Shown here: positions 2,513 through 47,459 of the stretch, one piece after another
Layout of the letters: each line of letters begins with the position of its first letter
Numbering within the stretch: position 1 is the stretch's first letter
NCBI GenBank assembly: GCA_041664245.1
Contig: JBAYLC010000001.1
Span: 86,654-150,653, forward strand
Direction: 5' to 3'
DNA length: 64,000 bases
DNA from: Minisyncoccota bacterium
Lineage (GTDB): Bacteria > Patescibacteriota > Minisyncoccia > UBA6257 > 2-01-FULL-56-20
Translations under genes and position numbers: made by a program
Notes under the pieces: generated by a model
Databases searched by the model: none
The model's input: only the letters and a program-made list of their open reading frames with translations
What the model was told of the DNA's origin: nothing

Positions 2513-2538
2513 CAAATCAGGTGTGCTATAATGTAAAA

Positions 2539-3321
2539 ATGAAATTAAAAAAATATTTAATTCCATTTGTTTTTCTGATTTTTTTAATCGCACCAATAAA
2601 TTCCAAAGCTGATCTTCCGGCGCCGTTTCTGATAACTTATTATTTCGATTACAAAACAAATAATTCTTCCCAACTGATTGAAGCAAAGCAAATTAGTTGC
2701 GATGATGAAGTCTGTGTAAGCGGGGATACTCGTAAACTATCTTGCTTTAGTGGTCCTAATGATCGTTGTCAACTGGAAAGTTTTCAATTATGGGGTCCAC
2801 AGAAGTTAATTGTCACCTTTTCCGATAAGGTAAGGCAGAGTAAAGTTTTCAACCAAAAAATCATAAGTACTAAATTTTCTAATCATAGCCAAAGCTTCAC
2901 TGTTGTAGTGGAAGATTCACAATTGATAGTTCAAGACTTTGTTTTTAATAATTCATCTAATTCATCTTCCGATTTAATGATTTTTATTAAGACTTTTCTA
3001 ATTTCTATTTTGATTGAAATTCTTGTCGCATTTTTTTATTTATCACTCATAAGAACACCTAAAAAACTTCAAATTATGGTATCAGTTCTGATAATAAATA
3101 TTATTTCTCTGCCACTCTTATGGTTTGTCCTCCTCCCAAAATTTAGTTCAGTTAACTATGGCCTCATTATAAGTGAATGTGCAGTGGTAATTATTGAAGC
3201 TCTTCTTCTCTTCCTAATCAATCGGAAAATATGGAATTTCTGGGTATTTCTACTACTTAGTATCGCTATGAACTTTTTTAGTCTAGTCCTCGGTACAATT
3301 ATTTATTCAATAACTTTCTAA
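2539..3321 (+). CDS. hypothetical membrane protein (signal peptide, Cys-containing ectodomain, C-terminal multi-TM region)
   Basis: Long ORF with an MKLKKYLIPFVFLIFLIAP signal and a C-terminal half of hydrophobic helices. An extended -10 TGcTATAAT (2524-2532) ends 6 nt before the ATG, so the mRNA would be leaderless. The ORF track begins 18 nt upstream at a non-ATG codon. Confidence 0.5.
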   Translation: MKLKKYLIPFVFLIFLIAPINSKADLPAPFLITYYFDYKTNNSSQLIEAKQISCDDEVCVSGDTRKLSCFSGPNDRCQLESFQLWGPQKLIVTFSDKVRQSKVFNQKIISTKFSNHSQSFTVVVEDSQLIVQDFVFNNSSNSSSDLMIFIKTFLISILIEILVAFFYLSLIRTPKKLQIMVSVLIINIISLPLLWFVLLPKFSSVNYGLIISECAVVIIEALLLFLINRKIWNFWVFLLLSIAMNFFSLVLGTIIYSITF

Positions 3322-8139: not shown

Positions 8140-9906
8140 ATGCCGAACAATAATCCTTCCACATTAAAACGCATTATTTCGCTTCTTAGGGACCGCAAAA
8201 AAACGGTTATTTTTTTGTTTGCCCTTATAACTATTTCTCAAACCGCCAGTATCATCGCTCCGTTTATCTCTAAAACTTTGATTGATACTTTAACGGCCTT
8301 CATCAAAAACGGCGGGGGAGCAATGCCGTGGAATGCTTTGATTTATTGTGCGCTGGGAATCTTGGTCGTAACGGTTGTAAGTAGTATTTTACATTCCGTC
8401 TACAGCTACTATCTTTTTGAAATGGTCACCAAGGTAGAAGATAAACTCCGCAGTTTGGCGTTTGAAAAATATCTTCAACTTCACTCTCTTTTTCACCATA
8501 GCGCTTCAAGCGGCCAAATAATCGGTCGCATCGAACGGGGTGGAATTTCCTTTTACGCCATCGTAAACGACATCATTGGGGAAAATCTCGTTCCGCCGTT
8601 AATTATTTTCGCTGGTTCGTTTTTGGCGTTGCTCTACGAAAACGTCTGGATTGCCCTCGCCGTTTTAATTCCGTTTCCAATTTATCTTTTAGCCACTCGC
8701 CGAATCGCTAACAAAATTTATCTGATTGAACAGCGCTCGAATGACGCTTTTGAAAATGTCTCCAAAGAAATTTACGACGTCGCCGGCAATGTCTTAACCG
8801 TCAAAAAATTTTCCCAAGAAGAAGCTGAAAAAGAAAATCATGAAATGTTAATCGGCCAAGCGCGCGAAATTCAATACACCGCTGAAAAGCTTTGGGGAAA
8901 AATCGAAAGCATCCAAACCGCCATCGCCACCACCGGTCGCGTCGCCGTTCTAGCTTTAAGTGCTTGGTTCGTTTTAAAAGGCGACGCCACCATCGGCCAA
9001 TTTGTTTTGTATATCACCCTTCAGAATATGGCGTACCAGCCGCTCACCTCGCTCTCTTCTCTCTTCACTCGCATCCGCCGGAATATGACCCGCGTTGACC
9101 GCTTGTTTTCCATTCTCGACGAACCGCTTAGCGTTATCGACAAACCCAATGCTTCTGTCTTGGCGCCGCTAGAAAAACAAATTGAATTTAAAAATGTTTC
9201 CTTCTCGTATCGCAGTGATGATCAATTTGCGCTCAAAGATATAAATGTTTTAATTCCCGCCTCAACCACTATAGCCTTGGTCGGCCGGTCGGGGAGTGGA
9301 AAAACAACTTTCGCTAATTTACTGCTCCGTTCCTACGATCCGCAAAAAGGAGCCATTCTCGTGGACGGCGTTGATATCCGAGATGTCACGAAAGTAAGTT
9401 TGCGAAGTCAGATTGCGGTTGTGCCCCAAGAAGTCGATTTATTTTCCCGCACGGTTGCGGCGAACATTGCCTATGGCCGCGACGGCGTTTCGCGGGCGCA
9501 AATCGAAAATGCCGCCAAAACTGCTTTAGCCCACGACTTTATTCTTAAATTAGAAAATGGCTACGAAACTGTCGTCGGCGAAAGGGGAATCAAGCTCTCC
9601 GGCGGCGAGCGCCAAAGGATCGGCATCGCCCGCGCGGTTTTACGCGATCCTCGGATTTTGATTTTAGATGAAGCAACGAGCCAGCTCGACACCGAAAGCG
9701 AGCAGATTATTACCAAAGCCACCGACGCTTTGATTAAAAATCGAACTTCGCTGATTATCGCTCACCGGCTCTCCACCGTTATCCACGCCGATATGATTTT
9801 GGTTTTCAAAGACGGAGTGATTGAAGCAAAAGGCACCCACGCCGAGTTGCTCCAAAAAAGCCCAACCTACGCCAAACTTTATTCTCTCCAATTTGCCGAC
9901 GAATAA
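8140..9906 (+). CDS. ABC exporter, fused permease-ATPase (MsbA/ABCB-like)
   Basis: An N-terminal TMD of about 6 helices, then Walker A GRSGSGKTT, signature LSGGERQRIGIARA, and Walker B ILILDEATSQLD. Confidence 0.9.
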   Translation: MPNNNPSTLKRIISLLRDRKKTVIFLFALITISQTASIIAPFISKTLIDTLTAFIKNGGGAMPWNALIYCALGILVVTVVSSILHSVYSYYLFEMVTKVEDKLRSLAFEKYLQLHSLFHHSASSGQIIGRIERGGISFYAIVNDIIGENLVPPLIIFAGSFLALLYENVWIALAVLIPFPIYLLATRRIANKIYLIEQRSNDAFENVSKEIYDVAGNVLTVKKFSQEEAEKENHEMLIGQAREIQYTAEKLWGKIESIQTAIATTGRVAVLALSAWFVLKGDATIGQFVLYITLQNMAYQPLTSLSSLFTRIRRNMTRVDRLFSILDEPLSVIDKPNASVLAPLEKQIEFKNVSFSYRSDDQFALKDINVLIPASTTIALVGRSGSGKTTFANLLLRSYDPQKGAILVDGVDIRDVTKVSLRSQIAVVPQEVDLFSRTVAANIAYGRDGVSRAQIENAAKTALAHDFILKLENGYETVVGERGIKLSGGERQRIGIARAVLRDPRILILDEATSQLDTESEQIITKATDALIKNRTSLIIAHRLSTVIHADMILVFKDGVIEAKGTHAELLQKSPTYAKLYSLQFADE

Positions 9907-9944: not shown

Positions 9945-9973
9945 TTGACAAATTCTAGTAGTATTGCTATAAT
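9945..9973 (+). promoter_or_regulatory. consensus sigma70 promoter TTGACA-17-TATAAT (family member d)
   Basis: Hexamers at 9945-9950 and 9968-9973. The downstream ACAAAAAGCAAA is identical to member a. Confidence 0.6.
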
Positions 9974-10019: not shown

Positions 10020-10364
10020 ATGAATCCGTCCGTCCTGGCTCTTATCGGTTTGGCAATCATATTAGCGGCCTATGCAGTCGCCAAAAAGATGCGTCATTCC
10101 AGCAATTCCAATTTACAGCGCTCAACAATTCCAGTTCCGACCAGTCGCGAGCTTGTCACCGCCGGCAAGACTGCATCAAAGTCTAAGATTGGGGAACCCG
10201 TGAGGTTCCACAGTAAGCGTCATGGTTGGCGTGAAGGTATCTTTATGGGATACACGCGTGGTGGTCGGAAAATCTTGGTTGGTCTCTGGTGTAAAAACGG
10301 CCAGGACAAGTTTCAGGTCCGCCGCGCTGTTGCCAAAGTTGAGTTCTGCAATCCGTGCGCCTAA
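10020..10364 (+). CDS. hypothetical protein with N-terminal TM anchor
   Basis: ORF with an AGAGGAGG SD, its own promoter and its own terminator. Confidence 0.55.
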   Translation: MNPSVLALIGLAIILAAYAVAKKMRHSSNSNLQRSTIPVPTSRELVTAGKTASKSKIGEPVRFHSKRHGWREGIFMGYTRGGRKILVGLWCKNGQDKFQVRRAVAKVEFCNPCA

Positions 10365-10411
10365 GCCGACACTAGTTGCCTACCTAACCGGTCCCACCTG
10401 CCTCCGCCCGA

Positions 10412-10448
10412 GTCCCGCATCATCTGCCTTTGGTGTGGGACTTTTTTT
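10412..10448 (+). terminator. Rho-independent terminator
   Basis: GTCCCGC...GTGGGAC followed by T7. Confidence 0.5.
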
Positions 10449-10519
10449 ATTGACAAAAAACAGATTTAAGATAAAATACAGCCAGAAATTTACTGTAACC
10501 AATAAAGGAGGAATCCGCG

Positions 10520-10879
10520 ATGATAAATCCGGAACAGCTTGAGCTAGGTTTATTTATCTGGTGGCAAGCCAGTCGCGACGGAAGCCGCACCTGGGGTTGT
10601 CTGGGTAGAATTGAAGTAATATACCCGGGTGAAAACCTCTTCAAAGTTCGACTTTTCGATGATTTTTCCCTCGTCGAATTCAAAATCGAAAAACTCCAGG
10701 CCGAAGACGAGGTGTTTCTCGAGGAAATGAAAGTAGTTGATCCCGCCGAGACAAAGCAACTTCTCAAAAAACGTCTCGAAGATATGTCTTCGGAGTTTAG
10801 CGCCGTGACGGGGAAGGCTGAACATTTAGGGGCGGCAATGGGCATGATCCAGATGATACTGGAGGAGGCTAGTGTTTAG
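10520..10879 (+). CDS. hypothetical protein
   Basis: ORF with an AAGGAGG SD. A TTGACA-16-TAAAAT promoter lies at about 10451 and a terminator at 10910-10938. Confidence 0.55.
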   Translation: MINPEQLELGLFIWWQASRDGSRTWGCLGRIEVIYPGENLFKVRLFDDFSLVEFKIEKLQAEDEVFLEEMKVVDPAETKQLLKKRLEDMSSEFSAVTGKAEHLGAAMGMIQMILEEASV

Positions 10880-10938: not shown

Positions 10939-10970
10939 CCTTTTCTTAGTGTTATAATAAAAAGCAACAA

Positions 10971-12020
10971 ATGGAAATTTCCAAACTCCCCGAATACGAC
11001 AATCACGAACTCATTTCTTACTTCAACGACAAAAAAACCGGCCTCCGCGGATTTATTGCTATTCATAATACAAATCTTGGTCCTACTGCTGGTGGTACTA
11101 GATACTTCCAATATAAATCCGAAGAAGAAGCGCTTCGTGATGTTTTGCGCCTGTCGAAAGCAATGACATATAAATGCGCTCTTGCCGGCGTGCCTCATGG
11201 CGGCGCGAAAGCAGTTATTATTAAGGATCCCAAATTTCCTAAAAATGAAAAATTTTTAGCCGCCTACGCCAAGCGAATTAATCTTTTGAACGGTAATTTT
11301 TCCACTGGTGAGGATGTCGGTATCTCACAAGAAGACGTAAATATTCTAAGCAAATATTCTAAATTTATGATCGGCCATAAGAACCTTGCCGGCGACCCAA
11401 GTCCCTGGGCTGGTCTCGGTGTTTTTTGGGCGATGCATGCCGCTCTTCAATCGGTTTTTGGCAATGATAAATTTTCCGACAAAAGCTTTGCTATTAAAGG
11501 TCTCGGTAAAGTTGGTTTTAGTTTATTAGAGTTAATTTATAAAAACGGCGGTCGAAACATCTTTGTCACCGATATAAATAAAGAAACAGCTAACATCGCT
11601 AAGAAAAAATTTCCCGAAATTAAAATTGTCAGTCCGAATATAATCCACAAACAAAAAGTTGATGTTTACGCTCCTTGCGCCATGGGTGCGGAATTTACCG
11701 AAACTACGATTAAAGAATTAAAATGCAGAATTATTTGCGGCGGCGCCAATAATCAATTAGCCAACAAGAAAATCGGCGAAGATTTACATAAGAAAAAAAT
11801 CCTGTATATTCCCGACTATCTCGCTAACGGCGGGGGATTAATAAACGTCGTCAGCGAACTTCGGCCGGAAGGATTCAGCCGCAACTGGGTGGAGCAAAAA
11901 ACTAAAGCTATCTGTCAAACTGCCCAAAAAATTATTGACCTATCAAAGAAACAAAACAAGTCCACTAGTGAAGTTGCCGATCGTCTAGCTGAAAGTATTT
12001 TTGGAGCAAAGAGTATTTAA
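10971..12020 (+). CDS. Glu/Leu/Phe/Val dehydrogenase family enzyme, leucine (or phenylalanine) dehydrogenase-like
   Basis: The match to LeuDH runs end to end: IAIHNTNLGPTAGGTRY, GLGKVG (NAD binding), and GGANNQL...YIPDYLANGGGLINV. An extended -10 TGtTATAAT at 10950-10958 sits just upstream. Confidence 0.85.
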   Translation: MEISKLPEYDNHELISYFNDKKTGLRGFIAIHNTNLGPTAGGTRYFQYKSEEEALRDVLRLSKAMTYKCALAGVPHGGAKAVIIKDPKFPKNEKFLAAYAKRINLLNGNFSTGEDVGISQEDVNILSKYSKFMIGHKNLAGDPSPWAGLGVFWAMHAALQSVFGNDKFSDKSFAIKGLGKVGFSLLELIYKNGGRNIFVTDINKETANIAKKKFPEIKIVSPNIIHKQKVDVYAPCAMGAEFTETTIKELKCRIICGGANNQLANKKIGEDLHKKKILYIPDYLANGGGLINVVSELRPEGFSRNWVEQKTKAICQTAQKIIDLSKKQNKSTSEVADRLAESIFGAKSI

Positions 12021-12050
12021 AATCGCCATATTTTATGATACAATTTCGCC

Positions 12051-13562
12051 GTGGCAGACATCGAGCCAAACGATAGAAACGCTCGCAAAATCCTTTCGCT
12101 CATAAGGACAAAAAAGGATAATTTTTGGTCTCGTGAGCGGGAACAACGGCCTCTCAAACTTTTTCACGAAGCCGCCCGCCGCGTTCCGGCGTATAAAGAT
12201 TTTCTAAAAAAGAATCATATTGATCCTAATAAAATTAAAAATTTTAAGGATTTTCAGCAAGTTCCCCTCACTAGCAAAAAAGATTATTTAAGAAAATATC
12301 CGCTTGAAAAATTATCCTGGGACGGCCACCTAAAAAAACCAATTATATTTACCTCTACCTCTGGTTCAACTGGTGAACCTTTCTATTTCCCAAGAGAACA
12401 TAAACTTGATTGGGATTATTCAATTCTTCTAGAACTATTTCTAAAAAATAGCTCCTATCAATCAGAGGGGCCAGTTCTCATTATTGTCGGATTTGGTATG
12501 GGTGTTTGGATTGGCGGCCTTATAACTTATCAAGGTTTCGAAATTGCCGGTCGCCGCAGTGGTTTACCAATTTCAATAATTACTCCTGGTATCAATAAGT
12601 CAGAAATTTTTCACGCCCTTAGAAATTTATCTCCCAATTTTAAAGAAACTATTATCGTTGGATATCCGCCGTTCATCAAAGATATTATTGATGAAGCTAA
12701 AGAAGCAAAAGTTGATTTTCGAAAAATTAATCTTCGTTTTTTATCGGCTGCCGAAGCCTATACCGAAAAATTTCGCGACTACGTAGTAAATAAAGGATTT
12801 ATAAAAAACACCCTTGCGGATGTGTTGAATGTTTATGGTACTGCCGATATTGGAGCAATGGCTTGGGAAACTCCGACTTCCATATGGATTAGAAGACAGC
12901 TAATTAAAAGAAAAAATGTTTTCGAAAAAGTTTTCCCTCATATTGTAAAAACTCCGACTCTCGCCCAATATAATCCGTTCTTTATAACTTTTGAAAGCCA
13001 AAATGAAGAAGTTATTCTCTCTGGAAATAATACAGTTCCTCTTATTCGTTACGCTGTCGGCGATCATGGCGGTGTTTATAATTTTTCGGAGCTAAAAAAT
13101 ATTTTAGATTCTAATAATATAAACATTAAATCAAAAACAGCGCTTTCAGAATTAAGAGGCAATATTTACGAATTGCCATTCGTTTATGTCTACGAACGCA
13201 AGGATCTCTCAACCACTCTTTGCGGTCTTCAAATTTATCCTGAAATTATTCGTGAAGCTCTACTTAATCCAATTATCTCTGAATTTTTAACCGGCAAATT
13301 TACGATGTTTACTAAGTTTGATAAAAAACAAAATCAATTTCTTGAACTTAACTTGGAGTTAAGGAAAAATAAAAAAATTACACCCGCACAGTCTAAGAAA
13401 GCCCAAGATGTAATTGTTTTAAATTTACGACTTAAAATTTCAGAATTTCGGGAACTCCATAATTATTTAAAGAAAAGGGCTTTGCCAAAACTTGTTTTTT
13501 GGCCAAGCGAACATCCGCTTTATTTTAGGCCGGGCGTAAAACAAAAATGGGTTAAAAAATAA
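12051..13562 (+). CDS. PaaK-like adenylate-forming enzyme (phenylacetate-CoA ligase / coenzyme F390 synthetase family)
   Basis: P-loop motif TSTSGSTGEPFYFP and a later YGTAD motif, typical of the ANL/PaaK superfamily. GTG start 7 nt after an extended -10 TGaTACAAT, so the mRNA would be leaderless. Confidence 0.65.
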   Translation: MADIEPNDRNARKILSLIRTKKDNFWSREREQRPLKLFHEAARRVPAYKDFLKKNHIDPNKIKNFKDFQQVPLTSKKDYLRKYPLEKLSWDGHLKKPIIFTSTSGSTGEPFYFPREHKLDWDYSILLELFLKNSSYQSEGPVLIIVGFGMGVWIGGLITYQGFEIAGRRSGLPISIITPGINKSEIFHALRNLSPNFKETIIVGYPPFIKDIIDEAKEAKVDFRKINLRFLSAAEAYTEKFRDYVVNKGFIKNTLADVLNVYGTADIGAMAWETPTSIWIRRQLIKRKNVFEKVFPHIVKTPTLAQYNPFFITFESQNEEVILSGNNTVPLIRYAVGDHGGVYNFSELKNILDSNNINIKSKTALSELRGNIYELPFVYVYERKDLSTTLCGLQIYPEIIREALLNPIISEFLTGKFTMFTKFDKKQNQFLELNLELRKNKKITPAQSKKAQDVIVLNLRLKISEFRELHNYLKKRALPKLVFWPSEHPLYFRPGVKQKWVKK

Positions 13563-14606
13563 ATGAAGTTTTCGGCTGACAATATAAGAAAAATCGACAA
13601 GGAGGATTTTTGGAAATTATCCGGCGGGGAAGACAGAATAAAATTTCTTCTTCGTTACGGAGTTTTAGCTCCCTCAACTCATAATAGCCAGCCCTGGCTG
13701 TTTAAGATTTTTCCAAGCTCAGTAGAAATTTATTACAACAAAGAAAAAGAAATCATTGAGGCCGATCCCCATGGTCGGGATTTATTTATAAGTTTTGGTT
13801 GTTTAATAGAAAACATTGTCACTGCCGCATCCTTTTTTGGAGTTGATACAGAAGTAAAATATTTGCCGGCTAAAGAAGTGAAGAACGAATTAATCGCGAC
13901 AATTGTTTTTAGTAATCTAAAAAACAATGACTTTTCACCGAATAAAGACGACTCGCTTTTGAATATTATCAAAACTAGAATTAATGCTCGAGGAATTTTT
14001 GAGAATAAAACAATTTCTCCAGATACGGTAAACAAGCTTATTTCTCTTAATGAAGATCCCAATATTAAAATAAATTTTATTACTGACAAGAAAAAAATCA
14101 ATCGTATTGCAGAGCTAACCGAACTTGGGCTTCACGAAGCCTACGCAAGAAAAAAATTCCGTATGGAAATGTCTAAATGGTTGAATCACAACCTTTCTAG
14201 TAAAAAAGAAGGCATTCCGGGATTTTCCTTGAGGATGTCTCTTTTAATCTCTTTAGCATTTCCGAAATTAGTTAAATTTCTCAATGTCGGTAAAGCCGTC
14301 GGAGTTTTGAATTACAAAAGCGCCGCTTCCGCTCCTGGTATTGTTATAATTGGTTCGAAAGACAATCAACCGGAAACTTTTCTTAAGGTCGGAAGAATAG
14401 CGGAAAGGTTAATGCTTCATTGTAAGCTTTATAATCTAAAAACATCCATTTTTCTTGCTTCGATAGAGATGGGGGACTACTGGAAAGAAATTCAAAAAAT
14501 TACAGAAAACGATTTTTTCCCCCAATTTATTTTTTGCATAGGATATCTAAATTACAATCAAAAATACAATTTTCGTTATAGAGTCGAAGAAAAAATTATA
14601 AAATAA
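13563..14606 (+). CDS. nitroreductase-fold flavoprotein (SagB/McbC-like or Acg-like double nitroreductase domain)
   Basis: APSTHNSQPW nitroreductase signature near the N-terminus. At 347 aa it is longer than single-domain nitroreductases. Its start abuts the previous stop. Confidence 0.6.
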   Translation: MKFSADNIRKIDKEDFWKLSGGEDRIKFLLRYGVLAPSTHNSQPWLFKIFPSSVEIYYNKEKEIIEADPHGRDLFISFGCLIENIVTAASFFGVDTEVKYLPAKEVKNELIATIVFSNLKNNDFSPNKDDSLLNIIKTRINARGIFENKTISPDTVNKLISLNEDPNIKINFITDKKKINRIAELTELGLHEAYARKKFRMEMSKWLNHNLSSKKEGIPGFSLRMSLLISLAFPKLVKFLNVGKAVGVLNYKSAASAPGIVIIGSKDNQPETFLKVGRIAERLMLHCKLYNLKTSIFLASIEMGDYWKEIQKITENDFFPQFIFCIGYLNYNQKYNFRYRVEEKIIK

Positions 14607-14610
14607 AAAA

Positions 14611-15741
14611 ATGCCTAAAAAATCGCCATCTTTAGAGAAAAAAATTAACAACCTAATCTATAATCGCGACTTGCAAAATTTTGAGCCCATCGTATTTGAC
14701 CTTAATATTTCTACCCATGAGGAAAAAATTTCGAAGCTGATCGAGAGAAAAGAAATTATTGAGATCGTCGATGATTTCTCCGTTCAACAAGAAGAATTAG
14801 CCCTGATAAAAAATCCAACCCTTCTTTCTAATCAGGAAAAACTCAAGAAAATTTTACTTTCATTTAAAGGATTAGATATAAATCATGGGAAATGGGTCTT
14901 TTATCCTTGGCGGCGGACTTTGGTTCATCTTTTAGATAGCAGAGATTTTCAAAGAGTTAAAACTTCTAGAAATCTAAACCTTATTTTACCTCAAGAGCAG
15001 CAAAAATTTGAAAAAGCCAAAATCGGGATTGCCGGCTTAAATGTTGGTAATCCAGCCGCCATCTGCCTTGCTCTCGAGGGAGTGGGAGAAATTAAATTAG
15101 CCGACATTGATCCGCTCTCTCTTTCCAATCTCAATCGCTTTCGCGCCGGAGTTTGTGATTTGGGTTTGAATAAAGTCACTCTTTCCGCTCGCCAAATAAA
15201 AGAGATTAATCCATTTTCTAAATTATCGGTATTTTTTAATGGCATCGTTGCCGGCCGAACAGAAGAGTTTCTGCTGAATCCCAAAATTGATGTTTTAGTG
15301 GAGGAAATGGACAACTTAAGATTGAAACTGGAGATTCGAGAAAAAGCTAGAAAGAATAGAATTCCCGTCGTCATGGTTACCGGCAACGGGCCAAACGTTA
15401 TTATTGATATTGAGCGGTTTGATAAAAATCCCAATCTTAAATTCTTGAGTGGTTATCTTAAAGAAGATTATCTTAAAAGATTAAAAACTTTAGACTTATC
15501 AAAATTAAAAGTTAATCAAAAAGTTTTATTAGCTCGCGATTTTATGGGCGCTCGTTATCTCACTAAACGCCTGCAAGATTCCTTCCTCTTGGTCGGTTCA
15601 AAATTAGCCGGTATTCCCCAGCTTGCCGAATCGAGTTTTCTAAGAGGAGCGGCGGTCTGCTATTTTGTCCGGCAAATTGTTTTAGGCAAAAATGTTCCCT
15701 CAGGAAGATATAATCTTAATCTCGAGGACATCCTAAAATAA
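14611..15741 (+). CDS. ThiF/MoeB/E1-like protein with ~130-aa N-terminal extension
   Basis: Rossmann region IGIAGLNVGNPAAICLALEGVGEIKLADID, an SLSNLNRF motif (compare ELSNLNRQ), and DVLVEEMDNL...IPVVMVTGNGPN. Confidence 0.7.
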   Translation: MPKKSPSLEKKINNLIYNRDLQNFEPIVFDLNISTHEEKISKLIERKEIIEIVDDFSVQQEELALIKNPTLLSNQEKLKKILLSFKGLDINHGKWVFYPWRRTLVHLLDSRDFQRVKTSRNLNLILPQEQQKFEKAKIGIAGLNVGNPAAICLALEGVGEIKLADIDPLSLSNLNRFRAGVCDLGLNKVTLSARQIKEINPFSKLSVFFNGIVAGRTEEFLLNPKIDVLVEEMDNLRLKLEIREKARKNRIPVVMVTGNGPNVIIDIERFDKNPNLKFLSGYLKEDYLKRLKTLDLSKLKVNQKVLLARDFMGARYLTKRLQDSFLLVGSKLAGIPQLAESSFLRGAAVCYFVRQIVLGKNVPSGRYNLNLEDILK

Positions 15742-15751
15742 TTTTTAGTTT

Positions 15752-17353
15752 ATGCTGGCCAACAACTTAAATTTATTTTTTACTTTCTTGGGAGCTTCAG
15801 CTACCGCCTTTTTGGGGTTTTTGGTTTTTCTTCATGACAGAAAAAGTTGCACAAATAAAATCTTTATTATCCATTCCTTTATAGCGATAGTTTGGGCAGT
15901 TGTAAATTATTTTTCTCTAAATCCGCCAGATAATAACAATTTGCTTTGGATTCGACTCGTTATATTTTTCGCCGTGCCATACGTGCTTGTTTTTCTTTTA
16001 TTAGTTTTAAATTTCCCCAATGAAAGATTAATAATCAAAAAAAGAAATCTTTTTTTGATTATTTTCTTGATGATAGTGATGATGGCGGGTGCGCTATCTC
16101 CTTTTGTTTTTCAAGAGCTCATTTCCTCAACCTCAACCCAAGTTTCGCCCACTCCGGGAATTTTGATGCCCCTCTTTGGTCCCTTGCTGGTATTTTTCTT
16201 TTTGCTCAGTTTCTTCTTGGTTATAAAAAAATATTTTAAATCAGACGGAGTCGCCAGAAGACAGTGGTTATTTATCGGTTCTGGGCTTTTAGTTGCTTAC
16301 ACGCTTTTGATATTTTTCGTCTTTGTGCGAGTAGTCGTTTATCAAGATACAACATTTGTCATTTATTCCCCGTTGTTTATTCTTCCAATTTTTGCCGGCA
16401 CAGCTTTTGCTATTCTTAAACATCAACTTTTTCGAGTAAAAGTTATTGCCACAGAAATTCTTATTTTTGGTCTTTTGGCTGTTAGTCTTATTCAACTATT
16501 CCTATCCGAAAGCACATTAGCTCTCGTAATTAATCTATGGATTTCCGCTCTCTTGCTTTTAGTCGGCGTTCTGTTAATTCGAAGCGTTTTAAAAGAAGTT
16601 CGCGAGCGTGAACAACTCCAGGACTTAACCAAACAGCTCCAAGACGTTAACGCGAAACTCGATAATTTAAGCCGATTCAAAAGCCAAATGCTTTCCTTGG
16701 CTGCTCACCAAATTAAAGCTCCGCTCGCCACAATAAAAGGATTCTCAACAATCCTAATCGACGGCCTCTATGGCCCAGTCACCGACAAAATTAAAGACAC
16801 CCTCAAAAAAATTCGTTTCTCCGCCGACGACCTGATTAATTTAATCAACACTCTTCTTGACCTTCGCCATGTTGAAGAGGGGAAAATGGACTATAATTTT
16901 CAGGCCGTAAAAATTAAAGACGTCGCCACCGAGGCTTTTGATGTTATTAAATTTCCCGCCCAACAAAAGGGGATTCAATTCACTCTTGATTGCTCAACTG
17001 AAGCGAACGTAAACGCCGATCCCCAAAAGCTCAAACAAGTCCTTCAAAATTTAATTGATAATGCCGTCAAATACACCTCCGAGGGTTTTGTTAAAGTTGA
17101 TCTGAAAGAAGAAGATGGTTTTGTGATTTTCTCCGTTACCGACTCTGGCCTTGGCATTCCCGCCGATCTTTTACCCCATCTTTTTGACGAAGAGTTCGTT
17201 CGCGATGAACGGGTTAAAAAAGAAATTCTTGGTACCGGCTTAGGTCTCTACATCGCCAAAAAAATTATCAACGACCATCGCGGCGAAATCGGCGTTAAAT
17301 CCGACGGCCCCGGCAAGGGAAGTTGCTTCTTTGTAAGATTAAAGAAAATTTAA
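15752..17353 (+). CDS. sensor histidine kinase with large polytopic N-terminal membrane domain
   Basis: About 8 predicted TM helices, then HisKA (AAHQIKAPLATIKGF), N box DNAVKYT, G1 DSGLGIP and G2 GTGLGLYIAKKII. Confidence 0.85.
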   Translation: MLANNLNLFFTFLGASATAFLGFLVFLHDRKSCTNKIFIIHSFIAIVWAVVNYFSLNPPDNNNLLWIRLVIFFAVPYVLVFLLLVLNFPNERLIIKKRNLFLIIFLMIVMMAGALSPFVFQELISSTSTQVSPTPGILMPLFGPLLVFFFLLSFFLVIKKYFKSDGVARRQWLFIGSGLLVAYTLLIFFVFVRVVVYQDTTFVIYSPLFILPIFAGTAFAILKHQLFRVKVIATEILIFGLLAVSLIQLFLSESTLALVINLWISALLLLVGVLLIRSVLKEVREREQLQDLTKQLQDVNAKLDNLSRFKSQMLSLAAHQIKAPLATIKGFSTILIDGLYGPVTDKIKDTLKKIRFSADDLINLINTLLDLRHVEEGKMDYNFQAVKIKDVATEAFDVIKFPAQQKGIQFTLDCSTEANVNADPQKLKQVLQNLIDNAVKYTSEGFVKVDLKEEDGFVIFSVTDSGLGIPADLLPHLFDEEFVRDERVKKEILGTGLGLYIAKKIINDHRGEIGVKSDGPGKGSCFFVRLKKI

Positions 17354-17356
17354 AAA

Positions 17357-17377
17357 CCCCGCTTCCGCGGGGTTTTT
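17357..17377. terminator. bidirectional Rho-independent terminator between convergent HK and rpmE
   Basis: CCCCGC-ttcc-GCGGGG flanked by A5 upstream and T5 downstream. Confidence 0.7.
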
Positions 17378-17644: not shown

Positions 17645-17693
17645 ATTATACACACCCCTCTAAATTTGACAAGCTTTTTCTGGTGTATATAAT
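17645..17693. promoter_or_regulatory. divergent overlapping promoters sharing one -35 element (plus: TTGACA 17666-17671 / TATAAT 17688-17693 toward 16S; minus: TTGTCA / TATAAT 17645-17650 toward rpmE)
   Basis: Consensus hexamers on both strands. Spacers are 16 nt each. Confidence 0.5.
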
Positions 17694-17890
17694 AACCCTG
17701 TTATGAATAAGGCCTGATAAACTCACAAAATATCTAATTTTGACGTGAGCTGTCGGCCTTTCGACAGCTTTTTTAAAACTTAAAATAAGCCACCAAAATA
17801 CATACAGAGTAATTGTTAATCAATTACTCGCGAGAGTTTTTTAGTTGTCCCAATATTTTTTTTGATTTTTATTTTAAAATCTTATTTTTT

Positions 17891-19445
<1,555 letters not shown>

Positions 19446-19630
19446 AAACTAACTTTTGAAAAAATCTTTCTGCATAAAGCAGATTGTAAATTAATTCAAA
19501 AGGTTTAGGCCGATCATGTCTCTCTACTCTGAAGCACTGCAAAGTGGATCATGGTAGTGAGACATGCGCATTAATTGGGACAACTAAAAAGCTCTTTGAG
19601 ATTTTCATTTTTTTTGGTAGAATCGGATAA

Positions 19631-20002
19631 ATGGATAAAAAGATCCTAGTAATCGAAGATGATCGGTTTTTGTCATCGCTAATGAAAGCCCGCCTTGAAA
19701 AGGAGGGCTATAAGGTGTCTCAAGCGTTTGACGGAGAAGAAGCCCTAAGCTTATTAAGGCAACAAAAGCCGGATCTAATCGTTATGGATTTAATTATGCC
19801 TAAAGTTTCTGGTTTTGAACTTTTGGAAAATGTTTCGGTTGATCCTCAACTAAACCATATTCCAATTATGATTTTGAGTAACCTCGGGCAGGAAAGTGAC
19901 ATCGAAAAAGTGAAACGTCTTGGGGCGGCTAAATATTTTGTAAAAGTAAAAACTTCCATTGACGAGCTAGTTGCCCACGTCAAAGAAATGTTAAATTTGT
20001 AA
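19631..20002 (+). CDS. single-domain response regulator (CheY-like receiver)
   Basis: VIEDD acidic pocket, phospho-acceptor D in DLIVMDLIMP, and a conserved K near AKYFVK. No output domain. Confidence 0.85.
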   Translation: MDKKILVIEDDRFLSSLMKARLEKEGYKVSQAFDGEEALSLLRQQKPDLIVMDLIMPKVSGFELLENVSVDPQLNHIPIMILSNLGQESDIEKVKRLGAAKYFVKVKTSIDELVAHVKEMLNL

Positions 20003-45239: not shown

Positions 45240-47459
45240 ATGTTAAGTAAAAATATAAAAATTTCCCTTATTATCATCTGCGCCCTATCCGTTTCAGTTG
45301 CCGGTTTCTGGTTAATCTCAAAAACTTTTGCCTTTATTGGTCCCTCGGCCAACCCACCTAGCGGTGACGGAGTATTTAAGGCTATCCTGTTAGATGGCGG
45401 TGGAGTGGGTCTAAAAATTGGTAATGGTATAGAATCAATCACCGATACGAGGCTTCTAATTCACAATCAAGAATCAAACCTTGTCGATCTCAAAATCTAC
45501 AACCCAAACGCAATTGATAGGCAAAATATTTTTGTCGTCAATGGTGCTTCTGGTGTTTCCGTCGGCACAACAACTGTCCCTGCTGTTTTTTTAGGAGGCA
45601 ATCCTAAGTATAGGCCGGGAGCCTGCAGTAATACAGTGGGAGAAAGCGGCTCTAATTGCCCGCTAATGTACATAGGGGGAAAATTAATAAGCGAAACCAT
45701 CGGCACCTACAATATCAACGCTTCCGGCACCGTCACTTCCGACGGGGGTTTTATTGGTAATCTTATCGGCGGTGTCTCTGCTAGTGGTGTCACTGCCGGA
45801 ATATTTGGTTCGGCCGGAGTGGGTGGTATCTATGCTTTTCCGAGTAGTTTAGGAGTTGGTCCTAATCCCTCACTTCCAGAATTTCAACTTGATCTATACG
45901 GCGACGCTACTAATAGCGGAATAATTTCTCGGGGAACATATCTCTCAGGAGATACTCTTTCCACTAGTGGAGCCGGTACTAGATTGATTTGGTATCCCCG
46001 AAAAGGGGCCTTTAGAGCGGGCGGAGTTTCTGGCACTCAGTGGGACAATACTAACATCGGTGATTATTCTATTGCGCTTGGTAATGATGTCATCGCCTCC
46101 GGTGGTATTGGTTCCACCGCGATTGGTGATAGTGCCACCGCCTCTGGGTGGTATGGTTCCACCGCGATTGGTGAAAATGTTACTGCCTCCGGCAAGGGTG
46201 GTTCCACCGCGATTGGTTATTACAACACTGCCTCCGGCGAAGGTGGTTCCACCGCGATTGGCGCCAATAACACCGCCTCCGGCAAAAATGGCTCCACAGC
46301 ACTTGGTTATTACACTCAAGCACTAGCAACAACTTCTATTGCCATTGGCACCTATGTCAGATCTTCTAATTATAATTCCATGATCTTGGGTAGTGGTTGT
46401 CGAACTAACGATTCAACTTGGCCCTGCACGATGATAAACAACACCCCCGAATCACTTTACGTAGGTTTCAATAGTGATATCCCTACCCTAGTCGTTACTC
46501 GGAGTAATGGCACAAGCACGACTGGTAATGTCGGCATTAGTAAAACTTCACCTACCTACAAATTAGATGTCGGCGGCGACGTCAACATCACCGGCACTTA
46601 CCGCGTCAACGGAGCAGCATTCGTTTCCGGCATAAACGGAACCGGCACTGATTTATATGTTCCTAAATGGACTAGTGCCGGTACGAAGCTCACTAACTCA
46701 AGTATTTACGATAATGGTGGACAGATAACTCTTGGCACTTCCGCCATGAATCTCTCTCTTCCTGGCCTGATTAATAGTGATCTCACCTTCCGGCCAGACT
46801 ATACCGCTACTATAATTGGCGGTAGCGGAGGAGCAAGTGCCCCATATGATGGTATGCCTCTCTCAATAAAAGGTGGTGCAGCAACCGGAGGGGGTTTTAT
46901 TGGTGGCAATCTCTATCTTGATGGAGGTACTCCCACTGGTGGATCAGCGGCTGGTAATGTTCTAATACAAACTGGTGTGGCTGGCAATGTAGGTATCAGT
47001 AAAACTCCTTCTTCTATTTATAAACTAGATGTCGCCGGCGACATTAATATCACCGGTAGTTATCGTATTAACGGAGTGGCTTTCAATCCTGTGACCGGCA
47101 CCGGTGCTTCTACTAATGTAGCAAAATGGACTGGCCCCTCATCACTCGGAAACTCAATAATGACTGAAAACGCGACTGGGGTTGGTATTGGCATAGCTAA
47201 TCCCGGCCAAAAATTAGATATTCAACCCACAGCTGGCTACCCCTCGATTCTCCTAAGAAGCTCATCTGCTTCTTCTGGCGGGGCATATATTTTTATGCTC
47301 ACTGCAAACGGTAGCGCATCAGGAGGAGATGCCGTTTGTTCCGCAATTGTGGCCAACTCCAAATGCCTTATGTCGTGGAGTTCGGTGGGTTCTAAGCAAA
47401 ACTGTGGTGCTAGCGGATCGGCAAGCGAAAGATATATCTGCGTTGGTTTTGCTCTCTAA
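45240..47459 (+). CDS. large secreted repeat protein with YadA-head/Hep_Hag-like 15-aa repeats (GSTAIGxxxTASGxG)
   Basis: Signal peptide. Five 45-nt tandem repeats at 46111-46335 encode STAIG..TASG units. Gly/Thr/Ser-rich throughout. Confidence 0.6.
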   Translation: MLSKNIKISLIIICALSVSVAGFWLISKTFAFIGPSANPPSGDGVFKAILLDGGGVGLKIGNGIESITDTRLLIHNQESNLVDLKIYNPNAIDRQNIFVVNGASGVSVGTTTVPAVFLGGNPKYRPGACSNTVGESGSNCPLMYIGGKLISETIGTYNINASGTVTSDGGFIGNLIGGVSASGVTAGIFGSAGVGGIYAFPSSLGVGPNPSLPEFQLDLYGDATNSGIISRGTYLSGDTLSTSGAGTRLIWYPRKGAFRAGGVSGTQWDNTNIGDYSIALGNDVIASGGIGSTAIGDSATASGWYGSTAIGENVTASGKGGSTAIGYYNTASGEGGSTAIGANNTASGKNGSTALGYYTQALATTSIAIGTYVRSSNYNSMILGSGCRTNDSTWPCTMINNTPESLYVGFNSDIPTLVVTRSNGTSTTGNVGISKTSPTYKLDVGGDVNITGTYRVNGAAFVSGINGTGTDLYVPKWTSAGTKLTNSSIYDNGGQITLGTSAMNLSLPGLINSDLTFRPDYTATIIGGSGGASAPYDGMPLSIKGGAATGGGFIGGNLYLDGGTPTGGSAAGNVLIQTGVAGNVGISKTPSSIYKLDVAGDINITGSYRINGVAFNPVTGTGASTNVAKWTGPSSLGNSIMTENATGVGIGIANPGQKLDIQPTAGYPSILLRSSSASSGGAYIFMLTANGSASGGDAVCSAIVANSKCLMSWSSVGSKQNCGASGSASERYICVGFAL

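Follow-up and report, generated by a model that had tools for sequence, protein, structure and literature searches.

A gene cassette of Patescibacteria that joins putative oxazolone-forming enzymes to a membrane sensor kinase

What do an amino-acid dehydrogenase, an adenylate-forming ligase, a nitroreductase-fold flavoprotein, a ThiF/E1-like protein and a histidine kinase have in common, that they should lie together in one compact locus of a Paceibacterota (CPR) bacterium with a tiny genome? The first-pass annotation could name no pathway for this combination and leaned towards TOMM-type peptide tailoring. Comparison with characterised enzymes points instead to the chemistry of oxazolone synthetases built from a ThiF domain and a flavin-dependent oxidase (FDO). 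We hold it about an even chance that the operon is a small-molecule biosynthesis unit, namely a split and re-partnered oxazolone-synthetase pathway to which a membrane sensor kinase of its own is genetically coupled. The window is the whole analysed stretch of 64,000 nucleotides, and all positions refer to it.

Layout and transcription signals of the locus

The gene calls and coordinates of the five open reading frames were exact, and their families were confirmed with Pfam and NCBIfam (Table 1). A coordinate check also bore out the operon-like compactness described before, with gaps of 30, 0, 4 and 10 nt. Housekeeping genes flank the cassette (aminoacyl-tRNA synthetase genes, EF-Tu/EF-G, rRNA and ribosomal proteins).

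Table 1. Features of the locus; the five-gene unit spans 10971-17353 on the + strand
Feature	Position	Strand	Remarks
Extended -10-like motif TGtTATAAT	10950-10958	+	12 nt 5' of dehydrogenase ATG
ELFV-family amino-acid dehydrogenase	10971-12020	+	349 aa; Pfam ELFV_dehydrog_N, ELFV_dehydrog
Extended -10-like motif TGaTACAAT	12036-12044	+	Inside 30-nt dehydrogenase-ligase gap; 9/12 consensus positions
PaaK-family (ANL superfamily) adenylate-forming ligase	12051-13562	+	503 aa; GTG start; no Pfam match
Nitroreductase-fold protein, Acg-type FDO	13563-14606	+	NCBIfam; putative C-alpha/C-beta desaturase
ThiF/E1-like adenylating enzyme, TrzS (Rv1355c) clade	14611-15741	+	376 aa; putative ATP-dependent cyclodehydratase
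HisKA_7TM sensor histidine kinase	15752-17353	+	533 aa; Pfam HisKA_7TM, HisKA, HATPase_c
Bidirectional intrinsic terminator	17352-17377	.	11-bp stem, 6 G-C pairs, T-runs both strands
Receiver-only response regulator	19631-20002	+	123 aa; Pfam Response_reg

Both extended -10 motifs, proposed earlier as promoters, are present in the sequence, but promoter-like matches in the region exceed those in shuffled sequences only modestly (29 vs 19.2 ± 5.0), so that the motifs are no evidence of function. The upstream motif is a candidate promoter for the entire five-gene unit, and no -35 element could be recognised upstream of it. The internal motif stops 6 nt short of the ligase GTG; since the gap between dehydrogenase and ligase is frequently tiny or overlapping in relatives, a promoter at this place is unnecessary. 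No terminator was found inside the unit. The single strong one, 3' of the kinase, sits between the kinase stop and the convergent rpmE (L31; identified with Pfam) and closes the transcription unit.

Linkage of enzymes and kinase across Patescibacteria

The cassette is found again in 54 species-representative genomes and 80 metagenome loci, where the order of its genes is shuffled, and every locus found belongs to Patescibacteria. Occurrence counts refer to the 36 complete species-level loci, while searches for partners and carriers covered 134 CPR loci. The ligase is present in 33/36 loci, the FDO in 35/36, the kinase in 35/36 and an amino-acid/2-oxo-acid enzyme in 20/36. Ligase, FDO, ThiF-like protein and kinase are found together in 33-35 of the 36, in at least six distinct gene orders with the kinase always at the 3' end; in over 100 related genomes the kinase lies almost always 3' of the enzymes. 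Overlaps of 4 nt are frequent at the junction between the nitroreductase-fold and ThiF genes. A reciprocal scan of metagenome loci, in which the kinase sensor domain was the only query, returned the core enzymes upstream in 49 of 51 assessable loci, and the ligase in 43 of the 51.

This clustering is far beyond chance. Co-localisation in related genomes had been named beforehand as the deciding observation, and it is conserved, contrary to the scattering that would have pointed to a coincidental neighbourhood. The housekeeping genes around the cassette are what speaks for such a coincidence of unrelated housekeeping genes; set against the togetherness of the four core genes through rearranged orders and their independent recovery via the sensor domain, its probability is close to nil, and we regard it as refuted by the genome survey.

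The kinase carries an N-terminal HisKA_7TM membrane sensor with about 8-9 hydrophobic segments (aa 8-276), a HisKA domain with H319 in the H-box HQIKAPL, and a HATPase_c domain; it also has the N, G1 and G2 boxes. Among 35 cassette-linked kinases the sensor domains can be aligned over their full length, and in 35/36 loci no more than 6.5 kb separate the gene from ThiF. Far from being an oddity in a biosynthetic operon, as it had first seemed, the kinase is the most faithfully linked partner of the cassette (35/36; 49/51). Its conservation beside the enzymes suggests that one cluster both makes and senses a small-molecule signal; we infer the sensing role from this linkage, which is silent on the ligand. 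The statement that no cognate regulator lies nearby was only partly right: rpmE and the 16S rRNA gene stand between the kinase and the receiver-only regulator of Table 1, a possible partner, but in 4/36 relatives a regulator of this kind comes directly after the kinase.

Families and predicted activities of the enzymes

The ThiF-like protein matches the Rv1355c-family model of NCBIfam with 299 bits, against 68 bits for the next family, and falls below the equivalog cut-off of this fusion model (476). Its residues 22-375 align to model positions 9-339, and it shares 38% identity with a bona fide member of the Rv1355c family (283 aa aligned). Judged by these sequence matches, it belongs specifically to the TrzS/Rv1355c clade. 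The ATP-site residues are kept, as is the Asp aligned with the catalytic Asp of ThiF, whose equivalent in TrzS (Asp217) is required for cyclisation (PMC12856293). The GLNVGN loop, described in the first-pass annotation as non-canonical, is a trait of the clade (a Rhodococcus TrzS-type protein has GLSVGS). The N-terminal extension, likened then to an RRE-like domain, is covered by the Rv1355c-family model and so is no peculiarity of this gene. When MccB or PaaA is superposed, at most about 255 residues align and the N-terminal ~110 aa find no counterpart in the peptide-binding domains, which leaves an RRE unsupported.

The nitroreductase-fold protein scores 183 bits with the NCBIfam 'Acg family FMN-binding oxidoreductase', just under the cut-off of 199. 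PRK14851 gives 78 bits, and the Rv1355c-family fusion model, over its positions 373-645, gives 66 bits. Among solved structures the best match is Acg of M. smegmatis (2ymv), which shares the motif APSxHNxQPW; the same structure is reported to be nearest to the FDO domain of TrzS (PMC12856293). Compared with a TrzS-type protein of Rhodococcus, similarity to the FDO half is weak (25% identity over 154 aa, E 2e-6). Being of the Acg/FDO type, the protein differs from NfsA/NfsB-type reductases. No SagB-type family is among its NCBIfam matches.

These results bear on the original lead, a TOMM/microcin-type RiPP system in which the E1-like protein and a SagB/McbC-like dehydrogenase modify a ribosomal precursor peptide. 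The pair does resemble TOMM C and B proteins, and structural comparison places PaaA and MccB near the ThiF core. We nevertheless consider such a system very improbable: the flavoprotein is of another family, the ThiF ATP site is intact and the N-terminal region lacks the expected superposition. Further, as noted before, YcaO and a precursor are absent: no YcaO was found in the 21 window ORFs of at least 350 aa and three smaller ones scanned, there is neither a conserved ORF of at least 60 aa nor a Cys/Ser/Thr-rich peptide ORF, for which the gaps between the genes leave no room. Since oxazolone synthetases use small N-acyl amino acids rather than peptides, neither would be expected. What was right in the lead, by homology to the oxazolone enzymes, is the idea of the two proteins as heterocycle makers.

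Activation of a sulfur carrier or ubiquitin-like protein (ThiS/MoaD/Ubl type), with the ThiF-like protein as E1, was also suggested, and would fit its membership of the ThiF/MoeB/E1 superfamily and its weak matches to ThiF, MoeB, UbaA and Cap2 models. All four scores are far under their cut-offs (ThiF 64 vs 159 and MoeB 48 vs 266, for example). The window holds no credible GG-ending small ORF, and across the 134 loci there is no recurrent gene for a carrier, E2, rhodanese or JAB protein. Among the ThiF-like proteins there is no conserved catalytic Cys and no CxxC pair, C152, in a Rossmann helix, being the only nearly conserved one. We give this idea hardly any weight.

When solved structures are compared by sequence, the ThiF core comes closest to the TcdA tRNA dehydratases (46 bits). 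In JGI annotation, homologs of the protein are labelled TcdA. The enzyme could then target a macromolecule or envelope component, for instance by cyclising an N-carbamoyl or N-acyl amino acid on tRNA in the manner of TcdA, or by modifying a lipid or cell-wall precursor, with ligase and FDO as helpers and the kinase monitoring the envelope. The multi-pass membrane nature of the kinase agrees with this, as do the JGI label and a TrpRS gene within 6.5 kb in 8/36 loci, but the position of TrpRS varies and most loci lack it. The TcdA model gives 51 bits (cut-off 304) against 299 for the Rv1355c family, whose characterised members use free N-acyl amino acids (PMC12856293), and we find a macromolecular target improbable.

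The ligase is only 15-18% identical to solved PaaK-family enzymes, and its PDB sequence matches are PaaK and BT_0428 only; against NCBIfam PaaK it reaches 54 bits (cut-off 646). A Foldseek search with its AF2 model (pLDDT 85.8) placed PaaK1 2y27 at the top (E 2e-22, TM 0.66-0.77), then BT_0428, and then NatL2, AjiA1 and ClxA, the last three being PaaK-family ligases that make ester or amide bonds (PMC7204872, PMC9400959, PMC12519233). Invariant among 60 homologs are the P-loop T103-S104-G105, Y262-G263, R333/Y334/G337/D338 and K497. The product may be a CoA thioester, an amide or an ester, among which the sequence cannot tell. Queries with the actinobacterial putative TrzA-like protein, GNAT and KAS III found no relatives in the 134 CPR loci. 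We propose that the ligase is an acyl-activating, N-acylating enzyme standing in for the OxzA/TyzA/TrzA acyltransferase.

The dehydrogenase has LeuDH 3vpx (272 bits) and TrpDH 5b37 (241 bits) as best solved relatives, and scores 303 bits with NCBIfam Trp_DH_ScyB, below the cut-off of 600. Relative to LeuDH 1LEH, its pocket carries L40->A, A113->G and V291->L, while K68, K80 and D115 are kept; G113 is found in 19/19 and L291 in 18/19 cassette-linked orthologs. The earlier assignment to Leu/Phe dehydrogenases holds for the family, but the predicted pocket is PheDH-like, not LeuDH-like, in all orthologs, and the enzyme is an accessory one. Its slot is filled by ELFV dehydrogenases in 13, HisC-like aminotransferases in 6 and an IlvE-type aminotransferase in 1 of the 36 loci, three mutually unrelated families. 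Since the other 16 lack an adjacent amino-acid/2-oxo-acid enzyme, the dehydrogenase/aminotransferase step is not obligatory.

Alternatively, the operon, under two-component control, might serve the catabolism or salvage of hydrophobic or aromatic amino acids: the dehydrogenase or aminotransferase would give the 2-oxo acid, the PaaK-like protein would be an acyl/aryl-CoA ligase, the nitroreductase-fold protein a reductase, and the kinase would sense the substrate. Among solved structures, true phenylacetate-CoA ligases are indeed nearest to the ligase, catabolism is a classical role of amino-acid dehydrogenases and aminotransferases, and nutrient sensing is equally plausible for the kinase. This scheme leaves the TrzS-clade ThiF cyclase, the most specific and constant member, without a role, and the flavoprotein is not of the reductase type. 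Moreover, the neighbourhoods contain no recurrent gene for downstream catabolism, such as a decarboxylase, ferredoxin oxidoreductase or thiolase, and the 16/36 loci without the first enzyme are hard to accommodate. We judge a catabolic role unlikely.

Proposed pathway and known oxazolone systems

The oxazolone proposal builds on what is established here: gene content, ThiF/FDO homology, intact catalytic motifs, absence of the acyltransferase, and linkage that is two-way and holds in shuffled orders. In an accessory first step, suggested by family and pocket, the ELFV dehydrogenase would interconvert a bulky hydrophobic, Phe/Leu/Trp-like amino acid and the corresponding 2-oxo acid, a HisC-like or IlvE-type aminotransferase taking its place elsewhere. 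The PaaK-family ligase would then adenylate a carboxylic acid, possibly the 2-oxo or an aryl acid, and join it to the amine of an amino acid, directly or via a thioester, yielding an N-acyl amino acid and thus substituting for the acyl-CoA-dependent N-acyltransferase. As in its homologs TrzS, TyzB and OxzB, the ThiF-like enzyme would adenylate the amino-acid carboxylate, with the amide oxygen closing a 5(4H)-oxazolone ring, and the Acg-type flavin oxidase, likewise by homology, would desaturate C-alpha/C-beta to an unsaturated oxazolone or closely related heterocycle. Finally, as the two-way linkage suggests, the 7TM kinase would sense the product, a precursor or a breakdown product in the membrane and signal to a receiver-only response regulator. 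We infer both the product of the cassette and the ligand of the kinase.

Many Patescibacteria inhabit low-oxygen groundwater. Since the known oxazolone-pathway FDOs need O2 (PMC12856293), another electron acceptor, or another reaction, may apply in the cassette. It is possible that the cassette is a CPR-wide signalling module.

In the known systems, ThiF and FDO turn N-acyl amino acids into oxazolones (bioRxiv 10.1101/2020.06.11.147165, PMC10404671, PMC12856293). OxzB, TyzB/TyzC and TrzS (= Rv1355c) combine ThiF with a flavin-dependent oxidase, and the ThiF-like and nitroreductase-fold proteins of the CPR cassette are a split form of these synthetases. Whereas the known systems possess an N-acyltransferase (OxzA/TyzA/TrzA), the cassette lacks one and has a PaaK-family ligase instead. 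New here are this replacement, the accessory slot open to three families and the two-way-linked 7TM kinase, in what would be a re-partnered relative of the oxazolone enzymes known from Mycobacterium and Pseudoalteromonas.

Organisation and conservation of the cassette

The five open reading frames (ORFs) of the cassette all lie on the forward strand, exactly where the first-pass annotation had placed them, and Pfam and NCBIfam searches confirmed the protein families that it gave. Successive ORFs are separated by 30, 0, 4 and 10 nt; we found no convincing terminator within the unit, and Rfam detected no regulatory RNA in or near it. Both extended -10 motifs previously proposed as promoters are present in the sequence, in an AT-rich region whose promoter-like matches exceed chance only weakly (29 against 19.2 +/- 5.0 in shuffled sequences).

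Coordinates in the window of the cassette genes, candidate control elements and neighbouring features
Feature	Position	Strand	Description
ORF unrelated to the cassette	2521-3321		no Pfam match
Fused ABC exporter	8140-9906		588 aa; ABC_membrane + ABC_tran
Near-perfect sigma-70 promoter	9945-9973		TTGACA-17-TATAAT with TG
Orphan ORF	10020-10364		114 aa
Terminator	10410-10443		13-bp stem, between the two orphan ORFs
Near-perfect sigma-70 promoter	10450-10477		TTGACA-16-TAAAAT
Orphan ORF	10520-10879		119 aa
Extended -10 motif	10950-10958		candidate promoter, TGtTATAAT; read from sequence
ELFV dehydrogenase	10971-12020	+	349 aa; Pfam and NCBIfam
Extended -10 motif	12036-12044		candidate promoter, TGaTACAAT; read from sequence
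PaaK-like ligase	12051-13562	+	503 aa, GTG start; NCBIfam, no Pfam domain
Nitroreductase-fold protein (FDO)	13563-14606	+	347 aa; Pfam/NCBIfam
ThiF-like protein	14611-15741	+	376 aa; Pfam/NCBIfam
Kinase	15752-17353	+	533 aa; HisKA_7TM + HisKA + HATPase_c; Pfam
Bidirectional terminator, strong	17352-17377		after kinase stop, faces convergent L31 gene
Perfect promoter	17666-17693		TTGACA-16-TATAAT, 5' of 16S rRNA gene
16S rRNA gene	17887-19450		1564 nt, no insertion; stand-alone
Receiver-only regulator	19631-20002		possible kinase partner
Adhesin-like protein	45240-47459		739 aa; YadA-head repeats

The window comes from a metagenome-assembled genome of Patescibacteria/Paceibacterota, and the cassette is surrounded by housekeeping genes. 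G+C content is low across 12-16 kb of the window, and GC3 is 0.27 in the ligase, 0.32 in the flavin-dependent oxidase (FDO), 0.35 in ThiF, 0.37 in the dehydrogenase and 0.39 in the kinase, with most other window genes at 0.33-0.62. The values for ligase, FDO and ThiF lie within the range of the whole window (0.26-0.62), at its low end. They may have arisen as the core cassette spread laterally between lineages of Patescibacteria (CPR bacteria), but they are suggestive of transfer at most, and we therefore rejected them as evidence of it. The unrelated ORF at the left of the window has a GC3 of 0.26, as low as the core cassette genes.

Homolog searches showed that the ThiF-like and ligase families are abundant in Patescibacteria, with many matches on common contigs, and the first neighbourhoods inspected held the same genes in differing orders. 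A scan of GTDB species representatives, annotated by BLAST with the window proteins, yielded 54 loci, all from Patescibacteria. Thirty-six loci were complete, having at least 4.5 kb on either side, and in these we counted genes within 6.5 kb of ThiF. The FDO and the 7TM kinase were each present in 35 of the 36 and the ligase in 33. An enzyme of amino-acid or 2-oxo-acid metabolism was found in 20: the ELFV dehydrogenase in 13, a HisC-like class I/II aminotransferase in 6 and an IlvE-type class IV aminotransferase in 1. Gene order varied (ligase-FDO-ThiF-kinase; FDO-ThiF-dehydrogenase-ligase-kinase; FDO-ThiF-ligase-kinase; the window's own), and 4-nt overlaps were frequent at FDO-to-ThiF junctions.

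The linkage also holds when approached from the kinase. We searched metagenome contigs with the membrane sensor domain only (aa 1-285, as a 12-sequence alignment) and took the best 80 loci, 51 of which had at least 3.5 kb upstream. Core enzymes lay upstream of the kinase in 49 of these 51 (FDO in 47, ThiF in 45, ligase in 43), so that the core genes, whose neighbourhood the first-pass annotation had suggested surveying, are co-localised in this set as across the 36 complete loci. This search added the orders ligase-ThiF-FDO-kinase and ThiF-dehydrogenase-ligase-FDO-kinase, and the kinase was the final gene in every locus. Constant membership with shuffled order is the classical sign of functional coupling, as distinct from synteny by descent.

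Clustering of the neighbourhoods revealed no other gene family recurring consistently, and most of the apparent conserved ORF clusters were rejected as antisense shadow ORFs inside conserved genes. One locus from Candidatus Liptonbacteria (L145:7860-13516) carries an apparently broken cassette, in which dehydrogenase, ligase and ThiF remain; ThiF is followed by an NTP_transf_2/DUF6922/AbiEii toxin-antitoxin-like insertion and a large LCAT-domain protein, and neither FDO nor 7TM kinase occurs within 9 kb.

The cassette enzymes

The first-pass annotation could not attach the cassette to a pathway with a name. By means of NCBIfam and the literature, its ThiF and FDO genes can be traced to an oxazolone-synthetase fusion. 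With the model 'Rv1355c family protein', the ThiF-like protein reaches 299 bits (residues 22-375 on model positions 9-339), with the next-best NCBIfam family at 68 bits, and the FDO matches positions 373-645 of the same model with 66 bits. The equivalog cut-off of this model, which describes the fused architecture, is 476 bits and is missed by the two separate proteins; as they match the two halves of one fusion, the two genes correspond to those halves. The TrzS-type reference for residue-level comparison (TrzS being Rv1355c) was a gene on a Rhodococcus plasmid, whose score with the model is 839 bits; between its ThiF half and the ThiF-like protein, identity is 38% over 283 aa (E 3e-60). Alignment with E. 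coli ThiF shows conservation of the ribose-binding Asp, of the Arg of SNLNR, of the Lys and also of the catalytic Asp, which is D234 in EEMDN (DCTDN in E. coli). Its counterpart in TrzS, Asp217, is essential for cyclisation (PMC12856293). These features place the ThiF-like protein in the OxzB/TyzB/TrzS-type cyclase clade, with an intact adenylation site. The GLNVGN loop, which had been regarded as non-canonical, is a trait of this clade, the Rhodococcus protein having GLSVGS at that position.

An RRE-like N-terminal extension had also been suggested for this protein. Its predicted structure (pLDDT 94.3) aligns with MccB and PaaA over 222-233 residues only, all of them ThiF core, and in no fold comparison did more than about 255 residues align; the N-terminal ~110 residues are therefore not superposed on the peptide-binding domains of MccB and PaaA, and the whole-model alignments give the suggestion no support. 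This region has no Pfam match and aligns with the N-terminus of the Rv1355c family in NCBIfam, a family whose substrates are small molecules (PMC12856293).

The best NCBIfam match of the FDO is the 'Acg family FMN-binding oxidoreductase' (183 bits, just below the cut-off of 199), and it also matches the FDO half of the PRK14851 model. Among solved structures it is nearest to Acg (2ymv), with which it has the motif APSxHNxQPW in common; for the FDO domain of TrzS, too, Acg has been reported as the nearest solved structure (PMC12856293). The similarity to the FDO half of the Rhodococcus protein is distant (25% over 154 aa, E 2e-6). We assign the gene adjoining ThiF to the flavin-dependent oxidases, the FDO subgroup of the nitroreductase superfamily.

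The pairing of an E1-like protein with a nitroreductase-fold protein, and an azole or azolone ring as predicted outcome, superficially recall TOMM/microcin B17-type peptide tailoring, where the pair accompanies YcaO and the flavoenzyme is a McbC/SagB dehydrogenase. The cassette differs in the intact ATP site of its E1-like protein and in its Acg/FDO-type flavoenzyme. YcaO is absent from the 21 window ORFs of at least 350 aa and from three smaller ones scanned, the window has no small Cys/Ser/Thr-rich peptide ORF, and the 54 loci contain no additional conserved ORF of at least 60 aa; the lack of YcaO and of a precursor peptide noted in the first-pass annotation is thus borne out, and this reading finds no support in the ORFs and loci scanned. 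Sulfur-carrier or Ubl activation, the other route proposed there, was set aside for its low family scores (ThiF model 64 against a cut-off of 159, MoeB 48 against 266, UbaA 31 against 450), because no credible GG-ending carrier ORF exists in the window, and because conserved Cys pairs are lacking in the ThiF family: C152 is its sole nearly conserved Cys, and there is no CxxC. A defence system was rejected; PADLOC returned weak E1-E2 (CBASS Cap2-like) matches for ThiF and nothing for the other cassette proteins.

In known oxazolone synthetase systems the partner is an N-acyltransferase. Searches of 134 CPR loci with actinobacterial queries (a putative TrzA-like protein, GNAT and KAS III) found no relatives at E <= 0.01, and the partner position is occupied by the ligase. 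This protein shows weak N-terminal matches to the PaaK and F390-synthetase models of NCBIfam; with the PaaK equivalog TIGR02155 the match (54 bits, N-terminal half only) does not reach the cut-off of 646. Its predicted structure (pLDDT 85.8) is closest to PaaK1 (E 2e-22, TM 0.66-0.77, 16% identity) and BT_0428, followed by NatL2, AjiA1 and ClxA. These last are benzoxazole-pathway ligases of the PaaK family, which are reported to turn their acyl-adenylates into esters or amides (PMC7204872, PMC9400959, PMC12519233). The ligase family is tightly conserved (66% mean column identity among 60 homologs), with P-loop, YGTAD motif, RYxxGD hinge and C-terminal Lys497 all preserved; the adenylation motifs are kept in a more divergent subtype as well. 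Motifs and model together indicate a PaaK-like fold, predicted to be competent for adenylation, whose acceptor could be either CoA or an amine.

On two actinobacterial linear plasmids, from Streptomyces (L062:6914-8712) and Kitasatospora (L064:6227-9111), we observed ThiF genes that match the cyclase half of the Rv1355c model only (414-422 bits) and lack a neighbouring FDO. In one case a GNAT acetyltransferase comes next; in the other, the ThiF protein has an extra N-terminal region of ~257 aa and the next gene encodes a KAS III. They may be further cyclase variants with other acylating partners, and such pairings fit the idea that acylating partners are interchangeable in the cyclase clade.

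Both ELFV domains of the dehydrogenase score above their Pfam cut-offs (84 and 62 bits), and the protein matches LeuDH 3vpx with 272 bits. Alignment with LeuDH 1LEH shows K68, K80 and D115, the catalytic residues, to be conserved and three pocket positions to be changed (L40->A, A113->G, V291->L); of the 19 cassette-linked orthologs, all share Gly113 and 18 share Leu291. In mutagenesis work, Gly/Leu at the positions of PheDH Gly124/Leu307 is the PheDH signature and Ala/Val that of LeuDH. We take Gly113/Leu291 to be the equivalent of the PheDH-type pocket, which suggests a substrate with a bulky or aromatic side chain. With both domains, the catalytic Lys and Asp residues and a hydrophobic pocket, the protein is predicted to be an ELFV-family Leu/Phe/Trp dehydrogenase. 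The aminotransferases that fill its slot in other loci (IlvE-type, 393 bits, above cut-off; HisC-like, 213 bits, below cut-off) belong to types that act on hydrophobic or aromatic amino acids.

The sensor kinase and neighbouring genes

All three domains of the kinase score above their Pfam cut-offs, and the protein carries H319 and the motifs DNAVKY, DSGLG and GTGLGL. Phospho-accepting His, N and G boxes and sensor together identify it as a two-component sensor histidine kinase. A receiver-only regulator lies directly 3' of the kinase in 4 of the 36 relatives.

Several other genes were observed near the cassette. In 8 of the 36 complete species loci (among them L003:3309-4304 and L024:15525-16571), a gene for a true tryptophan-tRNA ligase, scoring 271-300 bits on TIGR00233 and so above the cut-off, is found no more than 6.5 kb away, in some loci directly 5' of the dehydrogenase and in others 3' of the kinase. 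This frequency is far above that expected of a gene present once in a ~1 Mb genome; the gene is also found in L077, L111, L112 and L129. This proximity may point to Trp as a substrate (compare the tryptazolones) or be inherited synteny. The fused ABC exporter of the window, 1 kb upstream of the cassette, has full-length homologs (34-36% identity) beside the cassette in L010:4351-6141, where the gene is immediately 5' of the dehydrogenase, L041:14126-15928 and L129:12405-14162. It could export the product, with an association that is weak (4 of ~130 loci). The two orphan ORFs between exporter and cassette, each preceded by its own promoter, have no Pfam match and no homolog in the 134 related loci. 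Beyond the L31 gene, the 16S rRNA gene of the window, whose 64 kb contain neither a 23S nor a 5S rRNA gene, occupies the place where L003 has a LAGLIDADG endonuclease ORF (16566-16994). The YadA-head-repeat protein may bear on an attached, episymbiotic way of life.

Proposed pathway and comparison with known systems

Starting from the observed gene content, the ThiF and FDO homology, the intact motifs of ligase, ThiF and kinase, the missing acyltransferase and the two-way linkage, we predict the substrates, product and kinase ligand of the cassette as follows. The ligase would activate an acid, possibly a 2-oxo or aryl acid supplied by the accessory dehydrogenase or aminotransferase; ThiF would cyclise an N-acyl amino acid to a 5(4H)-oxazolone, which the FDO would desaturate; and the 7TM kinase would detect the product or a precursor and signal to the receiver-only regulator. 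We tentatively propose, as a possibility that we consider rather unlikely to prove correct as a whole, that the cassette is a self-contained chemical signalling circuit, widespread in Patescibacteria, in which ligase, ThiF and FDO make a membrane-permeant, oxazolone-like N-acyl-dehydroamino acid without acyl-CoA and the 7TM kinase is its receptor. A weak point of the proposed pathway is oxygen: the known oxazolone FDOs require O2, of which many CPR habitats offer little.

The discovery of oxazolone synthetases dates only from 2020-2025, and we know of no role for their products. The authors of one study noted the resemblance of oxazolones to acyl-homoserine lactone signals (PMC12856293). If the proposal is true, it would amount to quorum-sensing-like or symbiont-host communication in ultra-small, genome-reduced bacteria and would assign a first physiological role to natural oxazolones. 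The two-way link to one membrane sensor kinase offers a first testable hypothesis for their function and suggests a means by which uncultured episymbionts might detect one another or the hosts they live on. Almost no specialised metabolism is generally expected of CPR bacteria, with their tiny genomes, so that a four- or five-gene cassette of oxazolone type across many lineages is unexpected. The ligase family, for which there is no Pfam model, would be a new pathway feed, possibly CoA-free, of interest to enzymology and biocatalysis. In the available literature we found no published description of the cassette in CPR bacteria, of the ligase partner or of the kinase link, and the JBC papers on oxazolone enzymes mention neither CPR bacteria nor ligases nor histidine kinases.

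The closest known system is TrzAS (PMC12856293). The window ThiF most resembles the N-terminal half of the TrzS family, including the pre-Rossmann region and the shortened glycine loop, both systems have an Acg-type FDO partner, and by analogy an ATP-dependent cyclisation followed by flavin-dependent desaturation of an N-acyl amino acid would be common to both. In contrast to the fused TrzS of mycolic-acid actinobacteria (Mycobacterium/Rhodococcus), the domains are encoded in CPR bacteria by separate genes, mostly FDO then ThiF; the FDO is distant from that of TrzS, a PaaK-family ligase is the constant partner instead of the acyl-CoA N-acyltransferase TrzA, and the unit includes a 7TM histidine kinase. 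Separate proteins with this chemistry are known from TyzACB of M. tuberculosis, in which ThiF (TyzB) and FDO (TyzC) are encoded by separate neighbouring genes (PMC10404671). OxzB of Pseudoalteromonas rubra, the first oxazolone synthetase (bioRxiv 10.1101/2020.06.11.147165), is the founding ThiF-nitroreductase enzyme. Set beside the cassette by their published descriptions, these systems are alike in using small-molecule substrates and no precursor peptide; they differ in having a synthase of N-acyl amino acids (TyzA/OxzA) that is AHL-synthase-like or FeeM-like and uses acyl-CoA, and in lacking ligase, amino-acid dehydrogenase and kinase. The product of OxzAB, TyzACB and TrzAS is a 2-alkyl-4-arylidene-oxazol-5-one formed from an N-acyl aromatic amino acid, for which the cassette's sole sequence hint is the PheDH-like pocket. 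Given the missing N-acyltransferase and the missed equivalog threshold, we describe the cassette as one that would work like these systems, not as a member of them.

More distant parallels exist for the single parts. NatL2, AjiA1 and ClxA have the PaaK-type fold and provide a precedent for acyl-adenylates feeding (ox)azole formation through ester or amide bonds; the CPR ligase is only 15-16% identical to them, is ~70 aa longer and forms its own family. Their reported substrates are hydroxy- or amino-benzoic acids, and their partner is an amidohydrolase in place of the ThiF/FDO pair. Among solved ThiF-fold structures and sequences, the closest are AclA (PDB 9egb), which ranks first among the structural neighbours of the ThiF core, and the tRNA ct6A dehydratase TcdA. 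TcdA uses ATP to cyclodehydrate an N-acylated amino-acid moiety, but it acts on tRNA and has no N-terminal region, and the window ThiF scores 51 on its model against a cut-off of 304. In cqsA-cqsS, luxM-luxN and phcB-phcS, genes for the synthesis of a hydrophobic signal adjoin that of the multi-pass membrane kinase that detects it, sometimes followed by a regulator; their enzymes and sensor domain are unrelated to those of the cassette, in which the neighbourhood is what suggests a link between product and kinase. Compared with all these systems, the cassette appears to be new in its other acylating partner, its interchangeable amino-acid/2-oxo-acid accessory enzyme, its dedicated sensor kinase and its wide distribution in Patescibacteria.
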